Shown one piece after another: positions 52,884 to 62,759 of a stretch of DNA of 62,759 nucleotides (position 1 is the first letter of the stretch; every line of letters starts with the position of its first letter). Source of the DNA: Bradyrhizobium sp. (GTDB lineage Bacteria > Pseudomonadota > Alphaproteobacteria > Rhizobiales > Xanthobacteraceae); NCBI GenBank assembly GCA_035490095.1, contig DATHHQ010000325.1, forward strand, positions 1 through 62,759, written 5' to 3'. The translations under genes were made by a program, and so were the position numbers. The notes under the pieces were generated by a model. It searched no databases, had not been told where the DNA came from, and saw nothing but the letters and a program-made list of their open reading frames with translations.

Positions 52884-53099
52884 GCCCTCACCGCCGCTGC
52901 GCCTGACCTCGATGCGCCGGCCCACCTGTCCGTCCAAATCGTTCTTCCCCTTGGCCGGCGAGCGGCTATCTTTATTCTTATGCAGCCAAGCCTAGTCGAT
53001 GGCGCGGGCGGCGGGAAGTGGCAGAAAGTCGCTCTCCGGGCGGTAGTCGTCGAGCGCTTGGATGGATTAGCCGGGAAATTGATGGACCGTGAAGTTGAA

Positions 53100-53172
53100 G
53101 GGTCCGCTTTTCGGTGCGTCACGGACTCAGGCCGGACATCGCGGCATGTTCGAAAAGTGCCAGGAACGGAAG
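53100..53172 (+). repeat. GGGTC/GTGCC hairpin element
   Basis: GGGTC at 53100, GTCCG...CGGAC stem, GTGCC at 53157; 53115-53172 matches 53865-53922 at 49 of 58 positions. Confidence 0.8.
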
Positions 53173-53223
53173 CGATCAGCTCGTCGGCGTTTGCAGCGGG
53201 ATGACGCCCAACGATACTGAGCA

Positions 53224-53255
53224 GATCAGGCCGCGCCGCGCGGCGCGCCCTGATC
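53224..53255. terminator. 32-bp near-perfect palindrome downstream of the 53265-53699 gene
   Basis: GATCAGGCCGCGCCGC/GCGGCGCGCCCTGATC with one mismatch. Confidence 0.45.
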
Positions 53256-53264
53256 GCATCACAC

Positions 53265-53699
53265 CTATTTCAAACGTACCGTTACCCCGCCCACTGCAGC
53301 CGACACTTCAGCACCGACCTTTGGGCCGCTGAGCTGCAAGACCACGCCATTGGCATTTTGCAATTGAACGCCTCCAGCCCCAGCCGCAACCGCACCGCCG
53401 GCTCCGATCGCGCTGTAAGTGCCTTCAATCGAAGCCGGCCCTTTCAGATTGAGGGCCCGTCCGACCAGCTTGGTTGTCGAGGCTCCGATCGTGAAGCCGA
53501 CGCTCATGCCCGATGCGGTGAATGGATAGTGTTTGCCTCGTATGGTCAGCACGCCCTCGCCGCCGCCGACCCCGACGATGAACCCGCCTTTCGTGAATAC
53601 GACGGTGACCTGACCGGTTTCGGCCCGCGATGGCGTGCTAAAACCAGCTACGCCTGCGAGCAAGGCAACCAGGGCGACGCTTATGCCAAACTTTTTCAT
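53265..53699 (-). CDS. Secreted Gly-rich beta protein (DUF1134/EipA-like)
   Basis: Signal peptide; GFIVGVGGGEGVL, LQNANGVVLQL. Confidence 0.75.
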   Translation of the reverse strand: MKKFGISVALVALLAGVAGFSTPSRAETGQVTVVFTKGGFIVGVGGGEGVLTIRGKHYPFTASGMSVGFTIGASTTKLVGRALNLKGPASIEGTYSAIGAGGAVAAGAGGVQLQNANGVVLQLSGPKVGAEVSAAVGGVTVRLK

Positions 53700-53838
53700 G
53701 GCTTTCTCCCTCTGAAGAGACGCAATGCGACGTCGACTGTTAGGCAAGGAGCATGGCGAAATACCCAATCACGGCGATCAGAATGCAGGACACGTTGCGT
53801 GTCGGCAAGATGGTTGGCCTTCGCGTTCCCAAAAGAAG

Positions 53839-53922
53839 GGGCCAAAACACCACTGACTCCGCGATGCGTTACGGACTCAGGCCGGACAACGCGATATGTC
53901 CGAAAAGTGCCAAACTCGGAAG
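53839..53922 (+). repeat. GGGTC/GTGCC hairpin element
   Basis: GGGCCAAAA variant at 53839, GTGCC at 53907; paralogous to 53100-53172. Confidence 0.8.
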
Positions 53923-53932
53923 TCGCGACGTT

Positions 53933-54922
53933 TCATTCTATCACCTCGTCGGCGCGGGCGAGCATTATCGGTGGCACGGAGATACCAAGCGCCTTTGCGG
54001 TCTTCAAATTGATCACAAGCTCGTACTTGGTCGGTTGTTCGACCGGCAGGTCGGCAGGCTTGGCACCCTTGAAGATCTTGTCGACGAAAGCGGCGGACCG
54101 ACGATAAAGATCTCGAATGTCGGCCCCGTAGGTCAGAAAGAAGCCCGCCTCCGCCAACTCTCGCTGGAGAGAGGCGGCTGGCAGACGATTTCTTAAAGCC
54201 ATTTCTGCAATCTGGCCGCGATAATTGAACAGCACATTATCTCCCTGCATGACGAACGCCTGCGCGCGCTCCCTCACCATTAATTCAAACGCTTGCTCAA
54301 GTGCGTCCAACCCACGTGCTTCGACGGGAATAGTGGTCAACCCCAGTGCCCGGGCGGTCTCTGTCATCGCCGTCAGCCGGGTTCGATTGTACGCAAAGTC
54401 AGGATTGAACATAATGCCCAGACGCGAGAGGTTCGGCAGCGCTTCCTTTAGCAACTCAAACCGCTTGCCCAAAATCTCGCCGCCCGCATCCGCGGCGAGC
54501 CCGGTAACGTTCCCGCCGGGGCGCGCCAGACTGGCGACAAGCCCGGCGCTGACCGGATCGATACCGGTAGTCATGACGATCGGGATGGTTGTGGTCGCAT
54601 TCATGGCCGCAACCGTGGTCGGATTGCCCCCGGTGGCGAGGATGACGTCCACACCGAGCCGGACCAGGTCTGCGGCAAGCGCGGGCAGCCGTTCCCTCTC
54701 GGCGTTGGCGAAGCGGTACTCGATGACGACATTCTCGCCAACGCGGTAGCCGAGGCTCCGCAGGCCTTCTTCGACGTTAATGACATAGAGCGCGTGCTCC
54801 CGGAACGAGATCGAGAGGAACCCCACCCGGTAGATCCGCCCTGCCGATTGCTGCGCACGCGCGGCCAACGGCCACGTCGCTGCCGTGCCACCAAAAAGCG
54901 TGATGAACTCGCGCCGTTGCAT
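53933..54922 (-). CDS. Orphan ABC substrate-binding protein (ABC_sub_bind, MxRREFI...RADEVIE type)
   Basis: MQRREFIT, GLVASLARPGGNVTG, GAKPADLPVEQPTKYELVINLKTAKALG, RADEVIE. Confidence 0.92.
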   Translation of the reverse strand: MQRREFITLFGGTAATWPLAARAQQSAGRIYRVGFLSISFREHALYVINVEEGLRSLGYRVGENVVIEYRFANAERERLPALAADLVRLGVDVILATGGNPTTVAAMNATTTIPIVMTTGIDPVSAGLVASLARPGGNVTGLAADAGGEILGKRFELLKEALPNLSRLGIMFNPDFAYNRTRLTAMTETARALGLTTIPVEARGLDALEQAFELMVRERAQAFVMQGDNVLFNYRGQIAEMALRNRLPAASLQRELAEAGFFLTYGADIRDLYRRSAAFVDKIFKGAKPADLPVEQPTKYELVINLKTAKALGISVPPIMLARADEVIE

Positions 54923-55029
54923 GTGTCCCTCAAGACCACGTCTCGTCCTGGGCCTAAAGCCTAGCACTTTGCCAATGGGCCGCGAGTGAGAAATGGCACT
55001 CAGCCGGCCTCAGACATTGATCAGGCTCG

Positions 55030-55072
55030 ATGTCTCAGTTGGGTCCATGAGCGGACTCATGGAGTGCAGCAA
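55030..55072 (+). repeat. Single-hairpin GGGTC element
   Basis: ATGTCTCAGTT-GGGTC-CATGAGCGGACTCATGGAGTGCAGCAA; arms resemble 60642-60682, which has a GTGCC loop. Confidence 0.7.
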
Positions 55073-55250
55073 CGTCCAACCACAAAAAATTTGGTCGTGT
55101 CTTTCTTTGGATGTTTCCTGCAAGGCTTCTCTGGCGTTAAAGAGATCATCGAGCCTGAACTCGCTGGCTTCTCCACCTCCTGCGCTCGGGTATTGAGCGT
55201 CCATCAAGGCGCCCGCCGCGCCGCTGCTTCTATGAGATTTGGACAGAAAA

Positions 55251-56327
55251 ATGAGCCGTTTCTGGAGCAGCTTGACGCACGACCTGAGGCCCTACGTACC
55301 AGGCGAACAGCCCCGCATGGTGGAGCTGGTCAAGCTCAACACCAATGAAAGTCCACTTGGTCCTTCCCCACGCGTGTTGGAAGCGATTCGTGGCGAGGCG
55401 ACTGATACGCTGCGTCTATATCCGGACGCACAAGCCACCGCGCTGCGGGCTGCTTTGGCCACCTACCACCAGGTGCGACCCGAACAAGTGTTCGTCGGCA
55501 ACGGCTCGGACGAGGTGCTGGCCCACGTCTTCACCGCTCTGCTGAAGCATGATGCGCCGTTGCTCTTCCCGGACATCACCTACAGTTTCTACCCGGTCTA
55601 CTGCCGCCTGTTCGGCATCGCCTACGAGGCCGTGCCGCTCGATCAGGCCATGCAAATCCGCGTTGCCGACTATCGCCGGCCGGCCGGCGCGCTCATCGTA
55701 CCCAATCCGAATGCGCCAACAGGGGTTGCGCTGTCACGGGCTGAGATCGTTACCCTGCTGGAGGAACATCCTGACGCTCCCGTGGTGATCGACGAGGCCT
55801 ATGTTGATTTCGGCGCCGAGACCGCGATTCCGCTGGTCGCCTCCCACCCGAACCTTTTGGTCGTTCAAACAATGTCCAAGTCCCGGGCCTTGGCCGGGCT
55901 GCGGGTTGGCTATGCGATCGGCGACGCCGACCTGATCGAAGCGCTCACCCGGGTGAAGGACAGCTTCAACTCCTATCCTCTTGGCCGGCCCGCCCAGGCC
56001 GGCGCCATCGCCTCCCTGGCGGACGAAGCCTATTTTCAGCAGAGCCGAACTCGCGTGATCGAAGGCCGGGAGCGGCTAAACCGCGGACTGGTCCGGCTTG
56101 GCTTCGAAGTGCTGCCGTCCTCCGCTAACTTCGTCTTCGCGCGTCATCCGGCTCATGAGGGCGCGGCGCTGACCGCAGCGCTGCGCCAACGGGCGGTGAT
56201 CGTCCGCCATTTTCCCGCTCCTCGCATCTGCGACTATCTGCGGATAACCGTGGGCACAGACGGGCAAATTGACCGGCTATTGTCGGCCCTGTCGGACATC
56301 TTGAGCAGCGAGCCTGCATCTGCCTGA
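55251..56327 (+). CDS. hisC: Histidinol-phosphate aminotransferase
   Basis: [53 protein letters not shown]. Confidence 0.9.
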
Positions 56328-56492
56328 TTGCTCATCGCCTCGCGTTCCACGCGTGGAACGGCTCCTTCCGGAGACCAAGATGAGGCATTAGTGCAACAAC
56401 TATCGTCCTAAATTCCGGGAGGCACATCGTTAACAAGCTACAGCCTGCTTGTGGAGATATGATCGCATCGATGATTCGAGAAGGAATTTTCG

Positions 56493-56684
56493 ATGTCGAA
56501 GTTTGCGTTTGGCGGGCAAGTCGAAAACGTCGCTGACGATCACGAATCGGGTACGATTATTGCCGTGTTTCCGACCGTTGACGGAGGCTTTAGGGGCGCT
56601 GTCGATACGGACGGTTACGGCGCACTCCAGTTTTTCACCGGGGAGAAACTGGCTTTCACCCTTACGAGACGGAGTGCCGCATGA
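56493..56684 (+). CDS. Small hypothetical protein, 63 aa
   Basis: AGAAGGA RBS, beta-rich sequence, ATGA overlap with the next ORF. Confidence 0.6.
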   Translation: MSKFAFGGQVENVADDHESGTIIAVFPTVDGGFRGAVDTDGYGALQFFTGEKLAFTLTRRSAA

Positions 56685-57727
56685 CCGGCCGCCCAACCAC
56701 GCAAGGGACCTCCGCGATCGAACTGACGGAGGGCGACGGTAGTCCTGTGCGCAGTGGCCATCCGTTTGACGGCTTGGCTAATGCCTCAAATCGCACCCCT
56801 AGATTGGTGGCGACAACCGCCGAAAACATAGGTGTTGAACCATCAGGCAAGGCACCCTTGCCTGCAACGAAACGCAGCCGCGCCTCTCCGGCGCCCAAGC
56901 GCACCAAGGCAACCAAGGCCAATGGCAAGCAAGAAGCGCCCAGCGCGCCGCCGCTGACGGTTTCCGCCGCACCCACCGTGCCGGAGGCCGTTCCGGCCGC
57001 CCCGGAACGCGCCAGCGGCGCCATTGCCCTTGTTGCAGCTCTCGCACTAGCGACGGTTGCGGCCTACTTTTCAGTCACGGGCATGGCTGAAATATTTCCC
57101 GGGGCTCCGGTTGCGGTCATGGTGCTCGCCTCCACGATGGAGGCCGGCAAACTCGTTATAGCCGGATGGCTGGCCGCGCATTGGCGCCGGGTTGGATGGA
57201 AAATGCGCTCGGTCATGGTCGCCCTTGTTGCCGGCCTTGCCCTCATCAATGCCGCCGGTGTGTTCGGCAAGCTGGTCGAGGCGCATGTCAGCGTGGCGGC
57301 CTCGGCGCATTCCAGCGTCGCCGAACGCACTGAAACGCTCGACGCCCGTGTCAGGGCGCAATCGGCGACCATTGCCGACCTGGACAGTCGCGTTGCGCAA
57401 ATCGATCGGGCCGTGGACGAATCGACACGGCGCGGTTGGATGACCAGGGCCATCAGCATAGCAACGCAGCAGCGTGTGACGCGGGATGGACTCGATGCGC
57501 AGCGGCAGGCGGCAACGGCAACGCTGGTTGGATTGCAGGCGCAACGCGCGGCGCTGGTCGGTGAACGTTCCCGCATCGAAGCATCCGCGGGCCCGATCCA
57601 ATATCTCGCGATGATGGTCGGTGCCGCGCCCGAAGCCGCGGTTCGATGGCTGATACTTTTGATGGTGCTCTGCTGCGATCCCGCGGCAATCGCTTTGACC
57701 GTAGCGGCGACTGGTTCGCGGCGCTAA
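56681..57727 (+). CDS. Membrane protein with coiled coil, resembling a phage-associated family
   Basis: 3 TM (VAAYFSVTGM, MEAGKLV, GVFGKL), coiled coil, then GPIQY...AVRW...DP and a final TM; start uncertain. Confidence 0.75.
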   Translation: MTGRPTTQGTSAIELTEGDGSPVRSGHPFDGLANASNRTPRLVATTAENIGVEPSGKAPLPATKRSRASPAPKRTKATKANGKQEAPSAPPLTVSAAPTVPEAVPAAPERASGAIALVAALALATVAAYFSVTGMAEIFPGAPVAVMVLASTMEAGKLVIAGWLAAHWRRVGWKMRSVMVALVAGLALINAAGVFGKLVEAHVSVAASAHSSVAERTETLDARVRAQSATIADLDSRVAQIDRAVDESTRRGWMTRAISIATQQRVTRDGLDAQRQAATATLVGLQAQRAALVGERSRIEASAGPIQYLAMMVGAAPEAAVRWLILLMVLCCDPAAIALTVAATGSRR

Positions 57728-57740
57728 CGAACCCGAGTAA

Positions 57741-57776
57741 GGGCCAACGCAATAGCCAATTCCCAGGAAGCGACAT
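57741..57776 (+). repeat. Degenerate element remnant
   Basis: GGGCCAA...TCCCAGGAAGCGACAT directly abutting the SBP stop, at the position where other copies have GTGCCA plus a right arm. Confidence 0.4.
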
Positions 57777-58777
57777 CACTCGACCACCTCATCGGCGCGG
57801 CCGAGCAGCATCGCTGGCATTTCGAGGCCAAGCGCTTTCGCAGTCTTGAGATTGATGACCAGCTCGAATTTGGTCGGCTGATAAAAAGGAATGTCTCCCG
57901 GATTGGCACCTCTAAGAATCTTGTCGATGAGGTTGGCGACGCGGCGATAGATGTCCGCTAGGTCGCTCCCATAAGCCATCAGTCCGCCAACTTCGACGAA
58001 TTCGCGGAACGGACTTATTGTGGGAATTCGATCTTTCGCGGCCAATTCGGCAATCGTCGCACGATAGGTGACGTGCTCGGGTTCTTCAGATACCATGAGC
58101 GCATCCGCTCGATCTTGTTCCATTGACCTGAAGACGCGCTGGTACTCCGCCTCGTTAAAGGCGCTGCCCAGCAGAGCAGCCTTCAACGAAATGCCTGCCT
58201 GTTTGGCCGCCTCTCGGGCTGCCTCACCTCTTGCATCTTCCCAGAATCGTTGCGATGCAAGGTAGCCGACGGTGGACAGTTTTGGCACCGCCTCGACCAG
58301 CAGCCCCATACGTTTTCCAATGATTTCCAATCCCCCAGCGATAGTAACGCCTGTGATGTTGCCGCCCGGCCGCGCGATGCTTGCCACAAGTCCTTGGGCA
58401 ATCGGATCGATGATTATCGTCACAATCGGGATTGTCGTCGTCGCCATTTTGAAGTCTAGCGATAGATGAGCGCCCGACGTTAAAATCAAGTCAGGATGCC
58501 TGTTGACGACATCGCGGGCCAGTTCGGCATAGCGTTCGGGTCGCCCTTCTCCGGAGTAGCGTTCTACTCCGAGGTTTTGGCCCTCGACGTAGCCAAGGCG
58601 ACTTAGCTCCTCGAAAAAAGCGCGGTAATACGGTCTACCGCTCACGCTTATTTCGCTGACTTTGGCCGAAGAGGTAACAAGAGCGATCCGCTTCATCTTC
58701 GCCGGTTGCTGCGCTCCGGCCGCGAGTGGCCACGTAGCCGCAGTACCAAGTGCCGTGATGAAATCGCGCCGCCGCAT
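57776..58777 (-). CDS. Second orphan ABC_sub_bind substrate-binding protein
   Basis: MRRRDFIT, GLVASIARPGGNITG, QPTKFELVINLKTAKALG, RADEVVE. Confidence 0.92.
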   Translation of the reverse strand: MRRRDFITALGTAATWPLAAGAQQPAKMKRIALVTSSAKVSEISVSGRPYYRAFFEELSRLGYVEGQNLGVERYSGEGRPERYAELARDVVNRHPDLILTSGAHLSLDFKMATTTIPIVTIIIDPIAQGLVASIARPGGNITGVTIAGGLEIIGKRMGLLVEAVPKLSTVGYLASQRFWEDARGEAAREAAKQAGISLKAALLGSAFNEAEYQRVFRSMEQDRADALMVSEEPEHVTYRATIAELAAKDRIPTISPFREFVEVGGLMAYGSDLADIYRRVANLIDKILRGANPGDIPFYQPTKFELVINLKTAKALGLEMPAMLLGRADEVVE

Positions 58778-58906
58778 CTGACTCGCCTGAAGAAGGTGCC
58801 CTACGCATCGTCCAAACTACAGCAACCTCGAACGTTCAGCGAGGGACAAATGGCATCTGCCAGTTCAGCCGCGCGGATCGCCGTATTTCTCCTTGCTTCG
58901 GAAGGG

Positions 58907-60202
58907 TCATTTGGCGAATGCTTGATAGACCATATTTCGGATGAGAGAGCGGTAATACGCTCCCTGGTTTATTGGCACCTGCACCATCATGACAGCGATT
59001 AGGCTCTCTTTCGGATCTACCCAAAAGGTCGTCCCTGACGCGCCGGTCCAGTAGAATTCTCCAACCGAGCCTGGCATCGGATTGCGACCGACGTCCGTAC
59101 GAACCGCGAAGCCAAGGCCAAAGCCCTGCCCCAGTGCTGGGCTTGGAATTAGTGAGCCGAACCCCTGTACGGCTTGGCTTATGGCCGTTCCAGGAGGCAA
59201 GTGATCGGACGTCATGTAGGCCACAGTCCGAGGGGAGAGGAAATGGGCACCGTCGAATTCCCCGCCATTGAGGAGCATTAGGCAAAAGCGCGCATAATCG
59301 GGTGCAGTCGAAACCATACCGCCACCTCCAGACATCCAACTGGGACGCACACTCACATCGCGCATGGGTGGTCGCTTGCCAGTTGCTGCGTCTACCTGCG
59401 GTTCAGCAGCGCGGCTGATTTGCTCCGCCGACAAATAAAAGCCGGTGTCGGACATGCCCAGCGGCTTTGTTATACGCTCGGCGATAAACCGATCTAGCTC
59501 CATACCAGACACGACTTCGACAACGCGGCCGAGAACGTCCGTCGACATACTGTATTCAAACGTCGTGCCTGGCTGATAGGCGAGCGGCAACTGCGATAAT
59601 TTGCTTATGACAACCGCAAGGTTTTCACCGGGTGCCCCAATGTTCGCGCTGCGATATTCCTGCTTGACTAATGAATCTCCGAATTGTCCGTAAGTCAGTC
59701 CAGAGGTATGACGCAATAAATCATGGATTGTCATTTCGCGCCGAGGAGGCTCCAACACGAGTTCCGGCTTTCCGGCACCGTCGTTGACCTTCTCCACGCC
59801 GACTTTGACTCCCTTGAACTCCGGCAAAAAGGCCGACACCGGCGATACAAGCTGGAGCTTGCCCTCCTCGACCAACATCATGACGGCGACGGAAACAAGC
59901 GGCTTTGTCATGGAGGCGATCCGGAAGATTGCATCCCCCTTCATAAGGACCTGCTTCTCGCGATCTTGATACCCAAATGCGCCCGAGTAAGCGACTTTGC
60001 CATTGCGTAAGACAAGAACTACAGCCCCAGGAATCTTTTCACTGTCCACCTCGGACTGGAAAGCGGCATCGAGTATTTTCAAGCGCTGCGTCGATAGGCC
60101 CACCTCCTCTGGCTGTCGAGCTTTTGGGAGTGGCTCGGCAACTGCAGGAAAAGCGATGCAGACGGCGACAATCGTCGCAGACAAAAACCCACGGAGCATC
60201 AT
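58907..60202 (-). CDS. Serine hydrolase, beta-lactamase class C/family VIII esterase-like
   Basis: Signal peptide, FRIASMTK (SxxK), LLRHTSG, FEYS, WTGASGT. Confidence 0.92.
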   Translation of the reverse strand: MMLRGFLSATIVAVCIAFPAVAEPLPKARQPEEVGLSTQRLKILDAAFQSEVDSEKIPGAVVLVLRNGKVAYSGAFGYQDREKQVLMKGDAIFRIASMTKPLVSVAVMMLVEEGKLQLVSPVSAFLPEFKGVKVGVEKVNDGAGKPELVLEPPRREMTIHDLLRHTSGLTYGQFGDSLVKQEYRSANIGAPGENLAVVISKLSQLPLAYQPGTTFEYSMSTDVLGRVVEVVSGMELDRFIAERITKPLGMSDTGFYLSAEQISRAAEPQVDAATGKRPPMRDVSVRPSWMSGGGGMVSTAPDYARFCLMLLNGGEFDGAHFLSPRTVAYMTSDHLPPGTAISQAVQGFGSLIPSPALGQGFGLGFAVRTDVGRNPMPGSVGEFYWTGASGTTFWVDPKESLIAVMMVQVPINQGAYYRSLIRNMVYQAFAK

Positions 60203-60348
60203 CAGAAGCCCCCAATCGTCGGAAACAGAAACGTCAAAAAATGATCATCAGCATAACCGCCCCCGTGGTCAGATTTCAAGTTGTGATAGAGGCGAGGGAG
60301 AAATGCTACCCTTCAGCTTCAAACGCTGATGAAATTCAATGTGCGAAA

Positions 60349-60593
60349 TGGGTCCACTAGCGGACATCGCGCCTCGATCGTCTGATGTCCGCTCTTCCCT
60401 TGCACCGGACATTGCTGCGTCCGCTTGCGCATTCGAAACGTACCAAAAGCGGGGTCGCCGCCTCATTCGATCACCGCACCGGGAGTCACGGAAAGCTCCG
60501 CAATCGCGTCACGACCTGGTCGTACAGGCCGACTGATTTGCCCGGCGGGCTCGATCCGGGCATCCGGCGGCGTCAGGCGCAAAAATTTTCGTC
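60349..60593 (+). repeat. Long direct repeat, copy 1 (triple-hairpin element, VIE-stop tail and further sequence)
   Basis: First 81 bp identical to 62081-62161; high similarity continues to AAAAATTTTCGTC. Confidence 0.95.
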
Positions 60594-60682
60594 TGTTTTC
60601 CGCTTTGCCCTCAAACTCAGACATCGCGCGATGCATTCAGTATGTCTCAAAGGTGCCAAGAGCGGACTCATGCGCTGCAACA
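60594..60682 (+). repeat. GTGCC-type hairpin element
   Basis: TTCCGCTTTGCCCTCAAACTCAGACAT...ATGTCTCAAAG-GTGCC-AAGAGCGGACTCATGCGCTGCAACA. Confidence 0.75.
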
Positions 60683-60804
60683 TGATACGACTGTGAAGTC
60701 CGGCACAGACCTGCCGACACCCCGATTGTCGCCGACGCAATCGTGATTTATTTTCCTGTTTATCCAACTGACCCGCCAGATCGGCAAGTATTATTCCAAG
60801 CGTC

Positions 60805-60954
60805 ATGCTAGCAGCGCGAGTCCACAAGCCGGGGGCACCGGACGTTATCGTCGCCGAGAGCACCGACGTGCCGGAGCCAGGAAGACAAGAGGTTCTCATC
60901 CGCGTTCAGGCGGCAGGTGTGGGCCCTTGGAACGCCTTGGTCAGAACGGGCAAG
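60805..60954 (+). pseudogene. 5' fragment of an MDR-family NADP-dependent (quinone) oxidoreductase
   Basis: MLAARVHKPGAPDV...VPEPGRQEVLIRVQAAGVGPWNALVRTGK, then similarity is lost at about 50 codons. Confidence 0.8.
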
Positions 60955-60992
60955 CCCACCAACTCTTTGAGAATACTTGATCCCACGAATCC

Positions 60993-61979
60993 TCACTGTG
61001 CAGTTGCGGCCCTGTGTGGCGGTCCCACATAGGGAAACTCGGTGAGCAGATCGCTGTGGGCTCCCACCCCGTCCGTCGTGACTTTTCCATTTGTGAGGAT
61101 CGAGATGAAGCCGTCGAGGACGTCGTCGGTCAACGCCCTGCCATTGCTCGGATAGGACGCCGCGCGCGCGGGGTCGAAGCGCATGATGTCCGGCAGTAGC
61201 GTCCCTGCTACCCGCTGTGCTTCCTCGGAAGAATATCCTCCTATGTGCTCCAGCGAGTGCGCAAAGACGGCGATGAAACCGGCGTCGTCCGCCGGTCCCG
61301 CGGTTAGATAAGCGTCTCTCTCGTCGCCGGGAAGGAAGACAGATTGCGAAGGCCTCGCGCCGCGATCTGCCTGAACCCAGCTGCCGCTTGCGCCGTCTAC
61401 AGTTCGAGCCCAAAGGCCAAGCGCTTTGGTTCCGAGAGTGGAGTTGGGTACTTCCAGCACAATGCTGCACACGTCTTTGTCGGTGAAGAGATCGTTGCCG
61501 GAGAACTGAAAGTTGTTCAAGGCGCCCATCACGTCGAAGAAGAAGGGATCACTACGCCAGCCTGCGAAGAAGCGGTGGTTGCCAGCTTCGGTTATCCGTG
61601 CCTCCCGGTCCATAGAGACCGGCGCTCCTTCGACGATTATCTGCCCACCGTCGTAGGTTCCGGCGGCTTGCGCGCCCTCGACGCGGCGCAGCGTTGCGGT
61701 CTGCGCCCCGTCTGTGAATGGAGAGAAGCGTACGCTGTATGCAATATCGGCAACATTGTCGCCGTTCGTGTCAATCTTGATCTCGTATAACGCATCGGCC
61801 GCGAATGGATCCTGACGGGTCGGTCCCGGCGGATTGAAGCCGGAGGACGGATGCACGTTCATGATCAGGATCGACTTGCCTGCGCTGCCCGGCTTCGGGA
61901 AGGCATACAGGTCGGTTAAGTCAAGACGGGCATCGCCGTGGGGAAAACTAGTGTCAGGGCCGGAATAATGGTGTGACAT
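60993..61979 (-). CDS. DUF4331-family protein
   Basis: MSHH...DLTDLYAF, FAGWRSDPFFFD, NGRALTDDV, FPYVGPPH. Confidence 0.85.
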   Translation of the reverse strand: MSHHYSGPDTSFPHGDARLDLTDLYAFPKPGSAGKSILIMNVHPSSGFNPPGPTRQDPFAADALYEIKIDTNGDNVADIAYSVRFSPFTDGAQTATLRRVEGAQAAGTYDGGQIIVEGAPVSMDREARITEAGNHRFFAGWRSDPFFFDVMGALNNFQFSGNDLFTDKDVCSIVLEVPNSTLGTKALGLWARTVDGASGSWVQADRGARPSQSVFLPGDERDAYLTAGPADDAGFIAVFAHSLEHIGGYSSEEAQRVAGTLLPDIMRFDPARAASYPSNGRALTDDVLDGFISILTNGKVTTDGVGAHSDLLTEFPYVGPPHRAATAQ

Positions 61980-62080
61980 GGATCAGTCTCCGCGCAGGCC
62001 ACTCGTTACAGAAGCATGAAGATGAATGCATTATACGATGGTGTTGTCGATCCGAATCTGTCGGCGCTCAACGTCCGCTT

Positions 62081-62335
62081 TGGGTCCACTAGCGGACATC
62101 GCGCCTCGATCGTCTGATGTCCGCTCTTCCCTTGCACCGGACATTGCTGCGTCCGCTTGCGATATTCGAAAAGTGCCGAAAGCGGAGGTTGCCGCCTCAT
62201 TCGATCACCGCACGGCACACCGGGAGTCACGGAAAGCACCGCAATCGCGTCACGACATGGTCGTACAAGCCGACTGGTTTGCCCGGACGGGCTCGATCCG
62301 GGCATCCGGCGGCTTCAGGCGCAAAAATTTTCGTC
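62081..62335 (+). repeat. Long direct repeat, copy 2
   Basis: See 60349-60593. This copy has an intact first hairpin GTCCGCT-TTGGGTCCACT-AGCGGAC starting at 62073. Confidence 0.95.
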
Positions 62336-62387
62336 ACACAGACTTGGCGCGCACAGCCTGATTTCTTGAGCCGATTCAACAAATCGA

Positions 62388-62759
62388 CCCGACGGGCAAA
62401 TCACCCAAAAGTCTGTAAAGCCCCCGTTGCAAAAATATTCTGATTTTCCGAAGTCGCAAATCAGTCTATATCCATTGCATCCCGTTCCACTCGGAGGGGC
62501 GTTTCGCGAACGTCACGGACGTAGGGATGGGCTGCGGTGGACGCGGCGGCGCGCGAGACGGGCGATGCCGATGCGGACGGTGAAGTCGTGTGGTCCTGAC
62601 ATCTCGACGCTGGTGTCAAGCCGGTGGAAGCAATTCCGCAGGTGACGGTGGCAAAAGAGCCCGATCGCCGGGGAGAGCACGAAGGAAACCGTAAAACCAT
62701 TGCGCGGGGAATGCCGGGTGATTCCGGTGTACTCGTTGTTACTCGTGTGCGTTCTACCA
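62388..62759 (+). repeat. Large non-coding Bradyrhizobium-type dispersed element, cut by the window end
   Basis: CCCGACGGGCAAATCAC...GCAAAAATATTC...GCGGACGGTGAAGTCGTGTGGTCCTGAC...GGGGAGAGCACGAAGGAAACCGTAAAACCATTGCG. Recalled as a multicopy intergenic sequence; no credible ORF. Confidence 0.7.

Follow-up and report, generated by a model that had tools for sequence, protein, structure and literature searches.

The array and its genes

The window analysed here is a 62,759-nt stretch of contig DATHHQ010000325.1 from the Bradyrhizobium sp. assembly GCA_035490095.1. At positions 53100–62189 it carries an array of co-oriented palindromic sites situated between functionally unrelated genes. The array consists of gene modules alternating with linker modules, and exchange maps to 28-bp sites with the cores GGGTCA and GTGCCA; a tyrosine recombinase of ~210 amino acids (aa) probably recombines these sites, and it would act in trans and on double-stranded DNA. 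Nine sites scoring at least 18 bits are found in 53001–62400, compared with none in each of 30 dinucleotide shuffles of that segment, and a model scan of positions 1–53000 shows no site of 15 bits or more; the site models are partly trained on the window sites themselves. Thus the array of co-oriented elements described in an initial annotation of this DNA is real. The genome of the window (G000) is a 6.6-Mb assembly of 853 contigs, 82% complete, and occurs in soil runs.

The features are listed in Table 1. Pfam bears out the gene labels of the initial annotation apart from EipA/DUF1134. Of the distances it gave from GGGTC to gene starts, those of 119, 127, 148 and 103 bp stand, while that of 140 bp belongs to a GGGCC at 53839. 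The GGGTC at 53100, taken there for a loop motif, is the left arm of a decayed site. The two genes for substrate-binding proteins (SBP) were correctly said to stop near arms on the GTGCC side: SBP1 ends 10 bp from a B2 arm and the stop of SBP2 overlaps a decayed arm. The arms at 55030 were described as shuffled, and this site is indeed a hybrid, with a right arm resembling that of the site at 60642.

Table 1. Features of the array, with site scores in bits
Feature	Position	Strand	Remarks
Decayed A-type site	53100–53128	+	Left arm GGGTCCGCTTT; score 8.8; 46 bp before B2 at 53146; left edge of array
B2 site, 11-6-11	53146–53173	+	Core GTGCCA; score 30.6
EipA/DUF1134-like gene module	53265–53699	−	Pfam match below cut-off
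GGGCCA motif and decayed A-type site	53839–53878	+	A type inferred from 46-bp spacing to B2
B2 site	53896–53923	+	Core GTGCCA; score 33.7
SBP1 module, ABC substrate-binding protein (PF04392)	53933–54922	−	Pfam
Hybrid site	55030–55058	+	Left arm of B1, core GGGTCCA, right arm of B2 type; linker absent
hisC-like aminotransferase	55251–56327	+	Pfam; distant second copy on G000 contig C406
63-aa and 348-aa open reading frames	56493–57727	+	No Pfam family
Decayed element	57741–57776	+	GGGCCA, then TTCCCA and B2 right arm
SBP2 module, ABC substrate-binding protein (PF04392)	57776–58777	−	Pfam
Decayed B1 site	58893–58920	+	Core GGGTCA overlaps hydrolase stop codon; linker and B2 missing
Serine hydrolase module (PF00144)	58907–60202	−	Pfam; 55% GC
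Full element	60339–60456	+	B1 (GGGTCCA) 60339–60367, A 60385–60412, weak B2 (GTACCA) 60429–60456
A site and B2 site	60596–60669	+	A 60596–60624, B2 60642–60669; B1 missing; scores 29.9 and 32.8
DUF4331 module	60993–61979	−	Pfam
Full element	62071–62189	+	B1 (GGGTCCA) 62071–62099, A 62117–62144, B2 (GTGCCG) 62162–62189; right edge of array

Site anatomy and distribution

The motifs, at first interpreted as loops of one hairpin, are the cores of three separate palindromes of 28–29 bp. B1 consists of two 11-bp arms and a 6-bp core, GGGTCA (11-6-11), A is an 11-7-11 site with a CCC core, and B2 is again 11-6-11 with a core that is mostly GTGCCA. The arm consensus of all three types is AAAGCGGACAT and its complement. 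A full element has the order B1-A-B2 with neighbouring sites 45–47 bp apart; A follows B1 at 45–46 bp in 113 cases (81 at exactly 45 bp) and B2 follows A at 45–47 bp in 130 (97 at exactly 46 bp). Among steps across long gaps, B2 to B1 is the commonest (75 of 254) and B1 to B2 the rarest (5). When only the arms are used in a scan, spacers of 6 and 7 bp stand out with 184 and 185 matches (106–120 for other spacers), and the leading cores are GTGCCA, GCGCCA and GGGTCA. In distant alphaproteobacteria the linker is often GGGTCA-17 bp-TAGCCA, with A absent; thus the B2 core is NNGCCA.

G000 carries 168 strong sites (79 B2, 64 A and 25 B1) on 81 of its 853 contigs, whereas the reversed genome gives one. 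An iterated profile search shows 58 elements at E < 0.01. Coding sequence makes up ~80% of the DNA, yet predicted genes contain just 11 of 164 sites. In G000, 36 of 47 genes on the right-hand side of B2 run towards it, as do 17 of 17 at a distance of 40 bp or less; in other loci the corresponding values are 115 of 143, and 69 of 70 at 60 bp or less. The orientation bias expected from the initial annotation is thus present genome-wide. To the left of B1 it is weaker in other loci (56 of 99), and with 43 of 99 genes beside B1 running the other way, the plus-strand hisC block is not the exception it had been taken for. Gene modules carry 92–236 bp upstream of the gene, in line with the earlier suggestion that they bring their own upstream regions.

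The cargo is varied and includes enzymes, regulators, transporters and many PF04392 binding proteins. PF04392 genes are the commonest cargo, a full one following 36 of 302 B2 sites, and 10 further B2 sites retain just the PF04392 stop-codon motif. This cargo was noted across all loci, in the window at 53170, 60457 and 62190. New modules may arise by replacement of the inside of a PF04392 module. A 200-kb stretch of G012 (C1:1.09–1.29 Mb; L062–L064, L074–L082) carries elements by the dozen, grouped in blocks that face opposite ways. IS5-family transposase genes lie directly behind an A-type subfamily whose right arm ends in GGAAGT (in G000; L005:1462–2346, C667; L014:4850–5734, C8). A search of plasmid DNA with one triplet shows a single weak Bradyrhizobium match. 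Rfam gives no match above the gathering score, and of two sub-threshold matches neither falls on a site.

Location of the exchange points

Related copies match as far as a B core, and from the first base beyond it identity is at background level in all four comparisons made, which cover both cores from both sides with 13, 145, 489 and 17 pairs; these pairs are not independent. In pairs with a common spacer 1 (77 triplets), the sequence upstream of B1 is common in 0 of 126, whereas spacer 2 is common in 121 of 126, so linkage is kept across A. In pairs with a common spacer 2, the sequence downstream of B2 is common in 4 of 146. The pairs used for linkage derive from few linker families and are likewise not independent. 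These breaks in identity and linkage place the exchange points at both B cores, and the CCC core of A is ruled out as one. The initial annotation had placed crossover in the loops; this fits GGGTCA and GTGCCA, where identity stops, and not CCC. Its expectation that breakpoints fall at GGGTC/GTGCC rather than at random is supported. Since breakpoints are seen at both B cores and none at A, gene modules (B2 to B1) alternate with linker modules of ~90 bp (B1-A-B2).

The EipA and SBP2 modules of the window are found again in relatives G013 and G016, respectively, their core boundaries unchanged but their neighbours not the same. The EipA-like homologue of G013 begins at a GTGCCC core and has a different linker on its left, and a linker related to that of the 53100 site is present in G016. 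The elements at 57741 and 58893 are sub-threshold in the window, yet they hold as decayed sites: the homologous SBP2 module of G016 has an intact GTGCCA and an intact B1 with GGGTCA at the equivalent places, and GTGCCA is also intact at the first of these in G012 and in soil contigs. Together, the hybrid at 55030 and the decayed sites at 53850, 57760 and 58893 suggest ageing of the array. Behind the ABC operon, the array was not seen in any of 15 relatives; in G016 this operon reaches the downstream host repeat after ~250 bp. No sites lie beside hisC homologues in six relatives.

Soil contigs were compared for 8 of 24 listed runs, with 24 of 58 loose ends shown. At 97% identity or more, where sister strains or paralogous loci are a possible source, the contigs change sequence at the cores of 55041 and 62082. 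Where likeness is 90%, joints may stem from other organisms. Of the 24 loose ends shown, four (55045, 55050, 57768 and 62086) are no more than 10 bp from a B core; contigs X8 and X17 switch sequence at the hybrid core of 55030–55058, and X12 diverges directly after GGGTC at 62086. Two more (56333 and 56334), in contig set X12, show site sequences between hisC and the 63-aa/348-aa block.

None of 47 triplets shows a target-site duplication of at least 4 bp. A model in which a hybrid core, GGGCCA, marks an empty junction was rejected, as GGGCCA is an ordinary B2 core found behind A sites and recombinase genes.

B sites are also the exact insertion point of an element that encodes a tyrosine recombinase of 292 aa and a transposase of 400 aa (L217:4324–6900, L223, L254–L259; G058, G063). 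The layout of the insertion is core, element, then CA and the right arm, and 8 of 8 right ends and 4 of 4 left ends fit it. The transposase is presumably IS91-type, being Y2-like by motif. The element may be an insertion sequence (IS) that hunts the sites of the module system, as other IS target pdif or attC.

Candidate recombinase

In the site-rich G012 the only tyrosine recombinases are XerC, XerD and one fragment. The only recombinase fragments adjoining sites in G012 and in G000 (contig C803) belong to one family, and a site follows each. Full-length members are ~210 aa (195–220 aa in 68 loci), encoded by a gene of 630 bp, and every one of 65 sequences has R63, K91, H160, H186 and Y195. 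The predicted structure shows a tyrosine recombinase catalytic fold and an unstructured N-terminus without a core-binding domain (predicted local distance difference test, pLDDT, 83.6), with XerA as best structural match (E = 2e-9); a single-sequence fold with pLDDT 46 was discarded. No NCBIfam cut-off is passed. FimB/FimE-type recombinases are ~200 aa in length, and the NCBIfam model of this type (length 198) gives a weak match, E = 5e-4. The integron integrase model TIGR02249 gives 19.7 bits against a cut-off of 265, over residues 152–195 only.

The gene is found inside an expanded linker, GGGTCA-A′-gene-A-GTGCCA, both in numerous relatives and more widely in Proteobacteria. GGGTCA lies ~775 bp before the stop codon with an A-like site 52 bp on, an A site extends over the stop codon, and B2 follows 40 bp after it; conservation of this module runs from the GGGTCA core to the GTGCCA core. 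B1 is upstream and B2 downstream of the gene in 27 of 73 alphaproteobacterial loci, and the reverse is seen in none. As cargo of a gene module the recombinase appears in 1 of 144 gene slots. Sites within 10 kb of the gene are co-oriented with it in 187 cases and opposite in 41 (79 GTDB loci). In a tally of 121 genomes of the genus, counted by hand and including kin that are not independent, 17 of the 20 genomes with at least three strict site matches carry the gene or a fragment, compared with 28 of the 101 others.

The family also matches 395 plasmid records, including those of E. coli, Klebsiella, Vibrio and rhizobia, and its beta- and gammaproteobacterial copies are accompanied by variant cores on the same arms. 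Core pairs differ by lineage: GGGTCG/CGGCCA in Massilia (L187), TCGCTC/GTGCCA in E. coli plasmid pWA8 (L123) and GGGTCA/TAGCCA in G220 (L263–L269). In Massilia the arrays that flank the recombinase gene face opposite ways on its two sides, with the same module alternation.

Position and conservation make this catalytic-domain-only protein the likely enzyme of the system, acting in trans, and it thus provides a candidate for the trans-encoded enzyme anticipated in the initial annotation. Other candidates were rejected. The 370-aa tyrosine recombinase on C301 and the phage-type recombinases of G000 have no adjoining site arrays, and of the 12 PF00589 matches in G000 none is on the contig of the array. 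A serine recombinase, HUH or DDE partner is likewise discarded, none typical being present among 130 neighbouring proteins; these include no serine recombinase and no HUH nuclease (no genome-wide HUH search was made), and three are IS5 products.

Proposed mechanism

Each palindromic site would bind a recombinase dimer, and its neighbour at 46 bp, on the side of the linker, would serve as an accessory site that replaces the missing core-binding domain. This step is proposed because every exchange site has a neighbour at 45–47 bp on the linker side, also in the distant alphaproteobacteria whose linkers lack A. A would accordingly appear to be an optional extra period of the linker. If like cores recombine (B1 with B1 and B2 with B2), one gene module and one linker would be excised or inserted together, and single gene modules would be replaced through double crossovers. 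The difference between the cores would guard against deletion of the linker, and occasional B1 by B2 slips would give hybrids such as 55030.

Several observations weigh against this mechanism or its enzyme. Neither a circle junction, which the initial annotation proposed to look for, nor a precise deletion joint occurs among the joints listed for the contigs of the eight soil runs. The variable second base of the core proved uninformative for placing the crossover within it. Unpaired B sites are common, with no detectable A beside 80 of 268 B1 and 111 of 371 B2. The G000 copy of the recombinase (C803:16077–16621; L017, L249) is 55% identical, has an internal stop and is followed by a GCGCCA site. 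The closed genome G058 has 12 strict matches and repeated near-identical linkers and the gene is absent, as it is in the site-rich G004, G155, G182, G228 and G277; site-rich G145 shows no gene at E ≤ 1e-40. Only gene remnants are found in G012, G063 and G220, the last behind a GGGTCA-A pair. No clear sites flank the gene in G222 and G258. Class-wide, 150 alphaproteobacterial genomes checked for the recombinase gene and the strict site pattern show the gene in 5, the pattern in 18 and both in only 1, although G226 has sites that escaped the pattern. On inspection of the gene neighbourhoods, sites adjoin the gene in G213 and G226.

Site-rich genomes without the gene would be accounted for if the enzyme module is often lost or broken, which would leave behind frozen arrays such as that of the window. 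In integrons, half of the attC-site clusters that have no integrase (CALINs) are in genomes without IntI, according to the accessible part of PMC4889954. A host or unrecognised enzyme may instead take the place of the small recombinase. A clade similar to the C803 copy lies among GCGCCA sites in G108, and these recombinases are perhaps a sub-system with its own core.

Alternative explanations and known systems

The system resembles most closely the dif (pdif) modules of Acinetobacter plasmids, which are recombined by XerC/XerD. These have 28-bp sites of two 11-bp arms and a 6-bp spacer in which crossover occurs, and two module types that must alternate; module pairs are gained or excised together, single modules are replaced via double crossover, and IS elements target the sites (all from the portion of PMC13141974 available). 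The shared geometry and alternation would suit exchange by host XerC/XerD, with the small recombinase as passenger or helper in the linker slot. XerC and XerD are moreover the only full-length tyrosine recombinases found in site-rich G012, several site-rich genomes lack the small gene, and some left arms, e.g. ATTTCGCATTT, resemble XerC arms. If XerCD is the enzyme, the system reduces to a variant of dif modules. This explanation is unlikely. Both arms follow AAAGCGGACAT, unlike the asymmetric C and D arms of dif, and they lack the XerD motif TTATG. The sites are directly oriented and distinguished by two fixed cores, whereas pdif modules are bounded by inverse sites. One module type here is a 46–92-bp linker with an optional third site and carries a dedicated recombinase gene, the fixed position of which within the linker XerCD exchange leaves unexplained. 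Arrays are mostly chromosomal, with many per genome. XerCD is near-universal, but sites are patchy within the genus (42 of 121 genomes). A search by motif for a host dif gave nothing convincing in the incomplete G000.

Also improbable is a mobile unit that consists of the B1-to-B2 segment alone, that is, a recombinase-only element of ~815 bp and non-autonomous derivatives of ~90 bp, which insert into simple B sites. The recombinase module is indeed conserved exactly from core to core, near-identical linkers occur at many points within one genome (G044, G063, G108), and single B sites exist. Against this, the junction cores differ consistently (GGGTCA on the left, NNGCCA on the right), while integrated elements normally have matching cores. 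As duplex DNA, linkers of 46–92 bp could not form circles, being too short. From one genome to another, gene modules retain half-sites of their own and are thus units as well.

The initial annotation had assumed action on folded single-stranded DNA, which would call for an integron-like or HUH enzyme. One element, 62060–62200, clearly folds better than its shuffles (z −4.4 and −3.3), and a weak excess of base pairing over the whole linker (z −1.9 to −3.1) points the same way, against duplex sites; the IS91-type element, with its tyrosine recombinase and Y2 transposase, inserts at B cores (8 of 8 right ends), though it is not recognised in G000. The other elements fold no better than shuffles to any marked degree (z −2.1 to +0.8). 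Arms show no covariation in any of 10 pairings (|z| ≤ 1.7; 47 triplets, 68 gene modules), and complementarity between arms does not exceed that of permuted pairs, be it within a site, between neighbouring sites or in one gene module. Single-stranded action is thus very unlikely. loxP and dif are duplex sites of tyrosine recombinases, and the fixed spacing, the 11-6-11 layout and the A/T-rich inner arms fit sites of this kind. The lack of covariation likewise points to sites that would work as double-stranded, lox/dif-like DNA.

Integrons and CALINs are similar in having co-oriented, unrelated accessory genes with stops near the site and arrays without a neighbouring integrase, as far as the accessible text of PMC4889954 describes them. 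As the initial annotation stated, the attC ends RYYYAAC/GTTRRRY are missing (0 of 47 triplets). Unlike integrons, the present sites show no covariation, have a fixed length where that of attC is variable, and are of two alternating types, and the modules have upstream regions. Integron cassettes, by comparison, mostly have no promoter and are expressed from Pc at attI. An attI/Pc platform was not seen, and no search was aimed at one.

Least credible of all, and largely refuted, are ends or remnants of IS or miniature inverted-repeat transposable elements (MITEs), or regulatory repeats, without site-specific exchange: IS5-family genes adjoin two A-type sites, but target-site duplications are lacking in the 47 triplets, sequences switch with base precision at the cores from both sides with breaks in linkage, the orientation bias is strong, and the gene between element ends is a tyrosine recombinase and not a DDE transposase.

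Further comparisons concern the enzyme and the site arrangement. Two flanking sites with different spacers recall engineered cassette exchange, in which cargo lies between heterospecific lox or FRT sites; here the arrangement is natural, its units follow one another in arrays and the linker holds a third site, and the mechanism of exchange is a presumed one. The res sites of the Tn3 family have three dimer-binding palindromes at fixed spacing, whereas here two of the three sites are exchange points and the linked enzyme is a tyrosine recombinase. Like the candidate, FimB/FimE invertases (fimS/ipuS) are short tyrosine recombinases without a core-binding domain. They need accessory binding, and the recombinase gene may end within a site (from the part of PMC6083910 available). 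They invert one promoter segment between inverted repeats, whereas here hundreds of direct-repeat sites bound gene modules. The tyrosine recombinase classification of PMC8138268, in its available main text with supplements excluded, names no catalytic-domain-only group tied to cassettes. No description of the sites or of the recombinase family was found in the literature covered, mainly open full text without supplements.

The module system appears to be distinct from integrons, dif modules and IS/MITEs: it resembles dif modules most in its working and lacks defining features of each. The view of the initial annotation that this is a cassette shuffling system other than attC, dif, REP or IS ends is supported.

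Other features near the right edge

The element at 60339 is near-identical to the sequence from 62081 onward, the identity beginning at the B1 core. The two copies, 60349–60593 and 62081–62335, form a duplication of ~245 bp, ~94% identical, that starts at the B1 core; its other end is not at a core but within host repeat DNA. At 62378–62759 the array is bordered by a long multicopy host repeat, which has many copies in relatives, is very deep in soil contigs and is unrelated to the sites. A short reading frame on the plus strand, 60805–60990, is truncated by the DUF4331 module and, by eye, we take it to be like the N-terminus of a quinone oxidoreductase or alcohol dehydrogenase.

Implications

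On balance, the evidence leans modestly toward a broader view, in which minimal tyrosine recombinases of alpha-, beta- and gammaproteobacteria would drive a third natural gene-cassette system beside integrons and dif modules. In such a system exchange would take place between two non-interchangeable sites, a neighbour site 46 bp off would replace a DNA-binding domain, the enzyme would travel as its own module, and tens to hundreds of modules per genome would be swappable.

No integron, In0 or CALIN was found in 243 alphaproteobacterial genomes, an absence called "extremely puzzling" (PMC4889954, in the text available). The module system is a candidate for the integron role in Alphaproteobacteria, and with a gene of 630 bp and substrates of 120 bp it is directly testable. 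A recombinase of ~210 aa with two natural orthogonal sites would be a compact tool. The recombinase family, with matches in 395 plasmid records, may represent a means of gene mobility that has gone unannotated. If true, the system would explain hypervariable islands and part of the PF04392 expansion in these soil bacteria.

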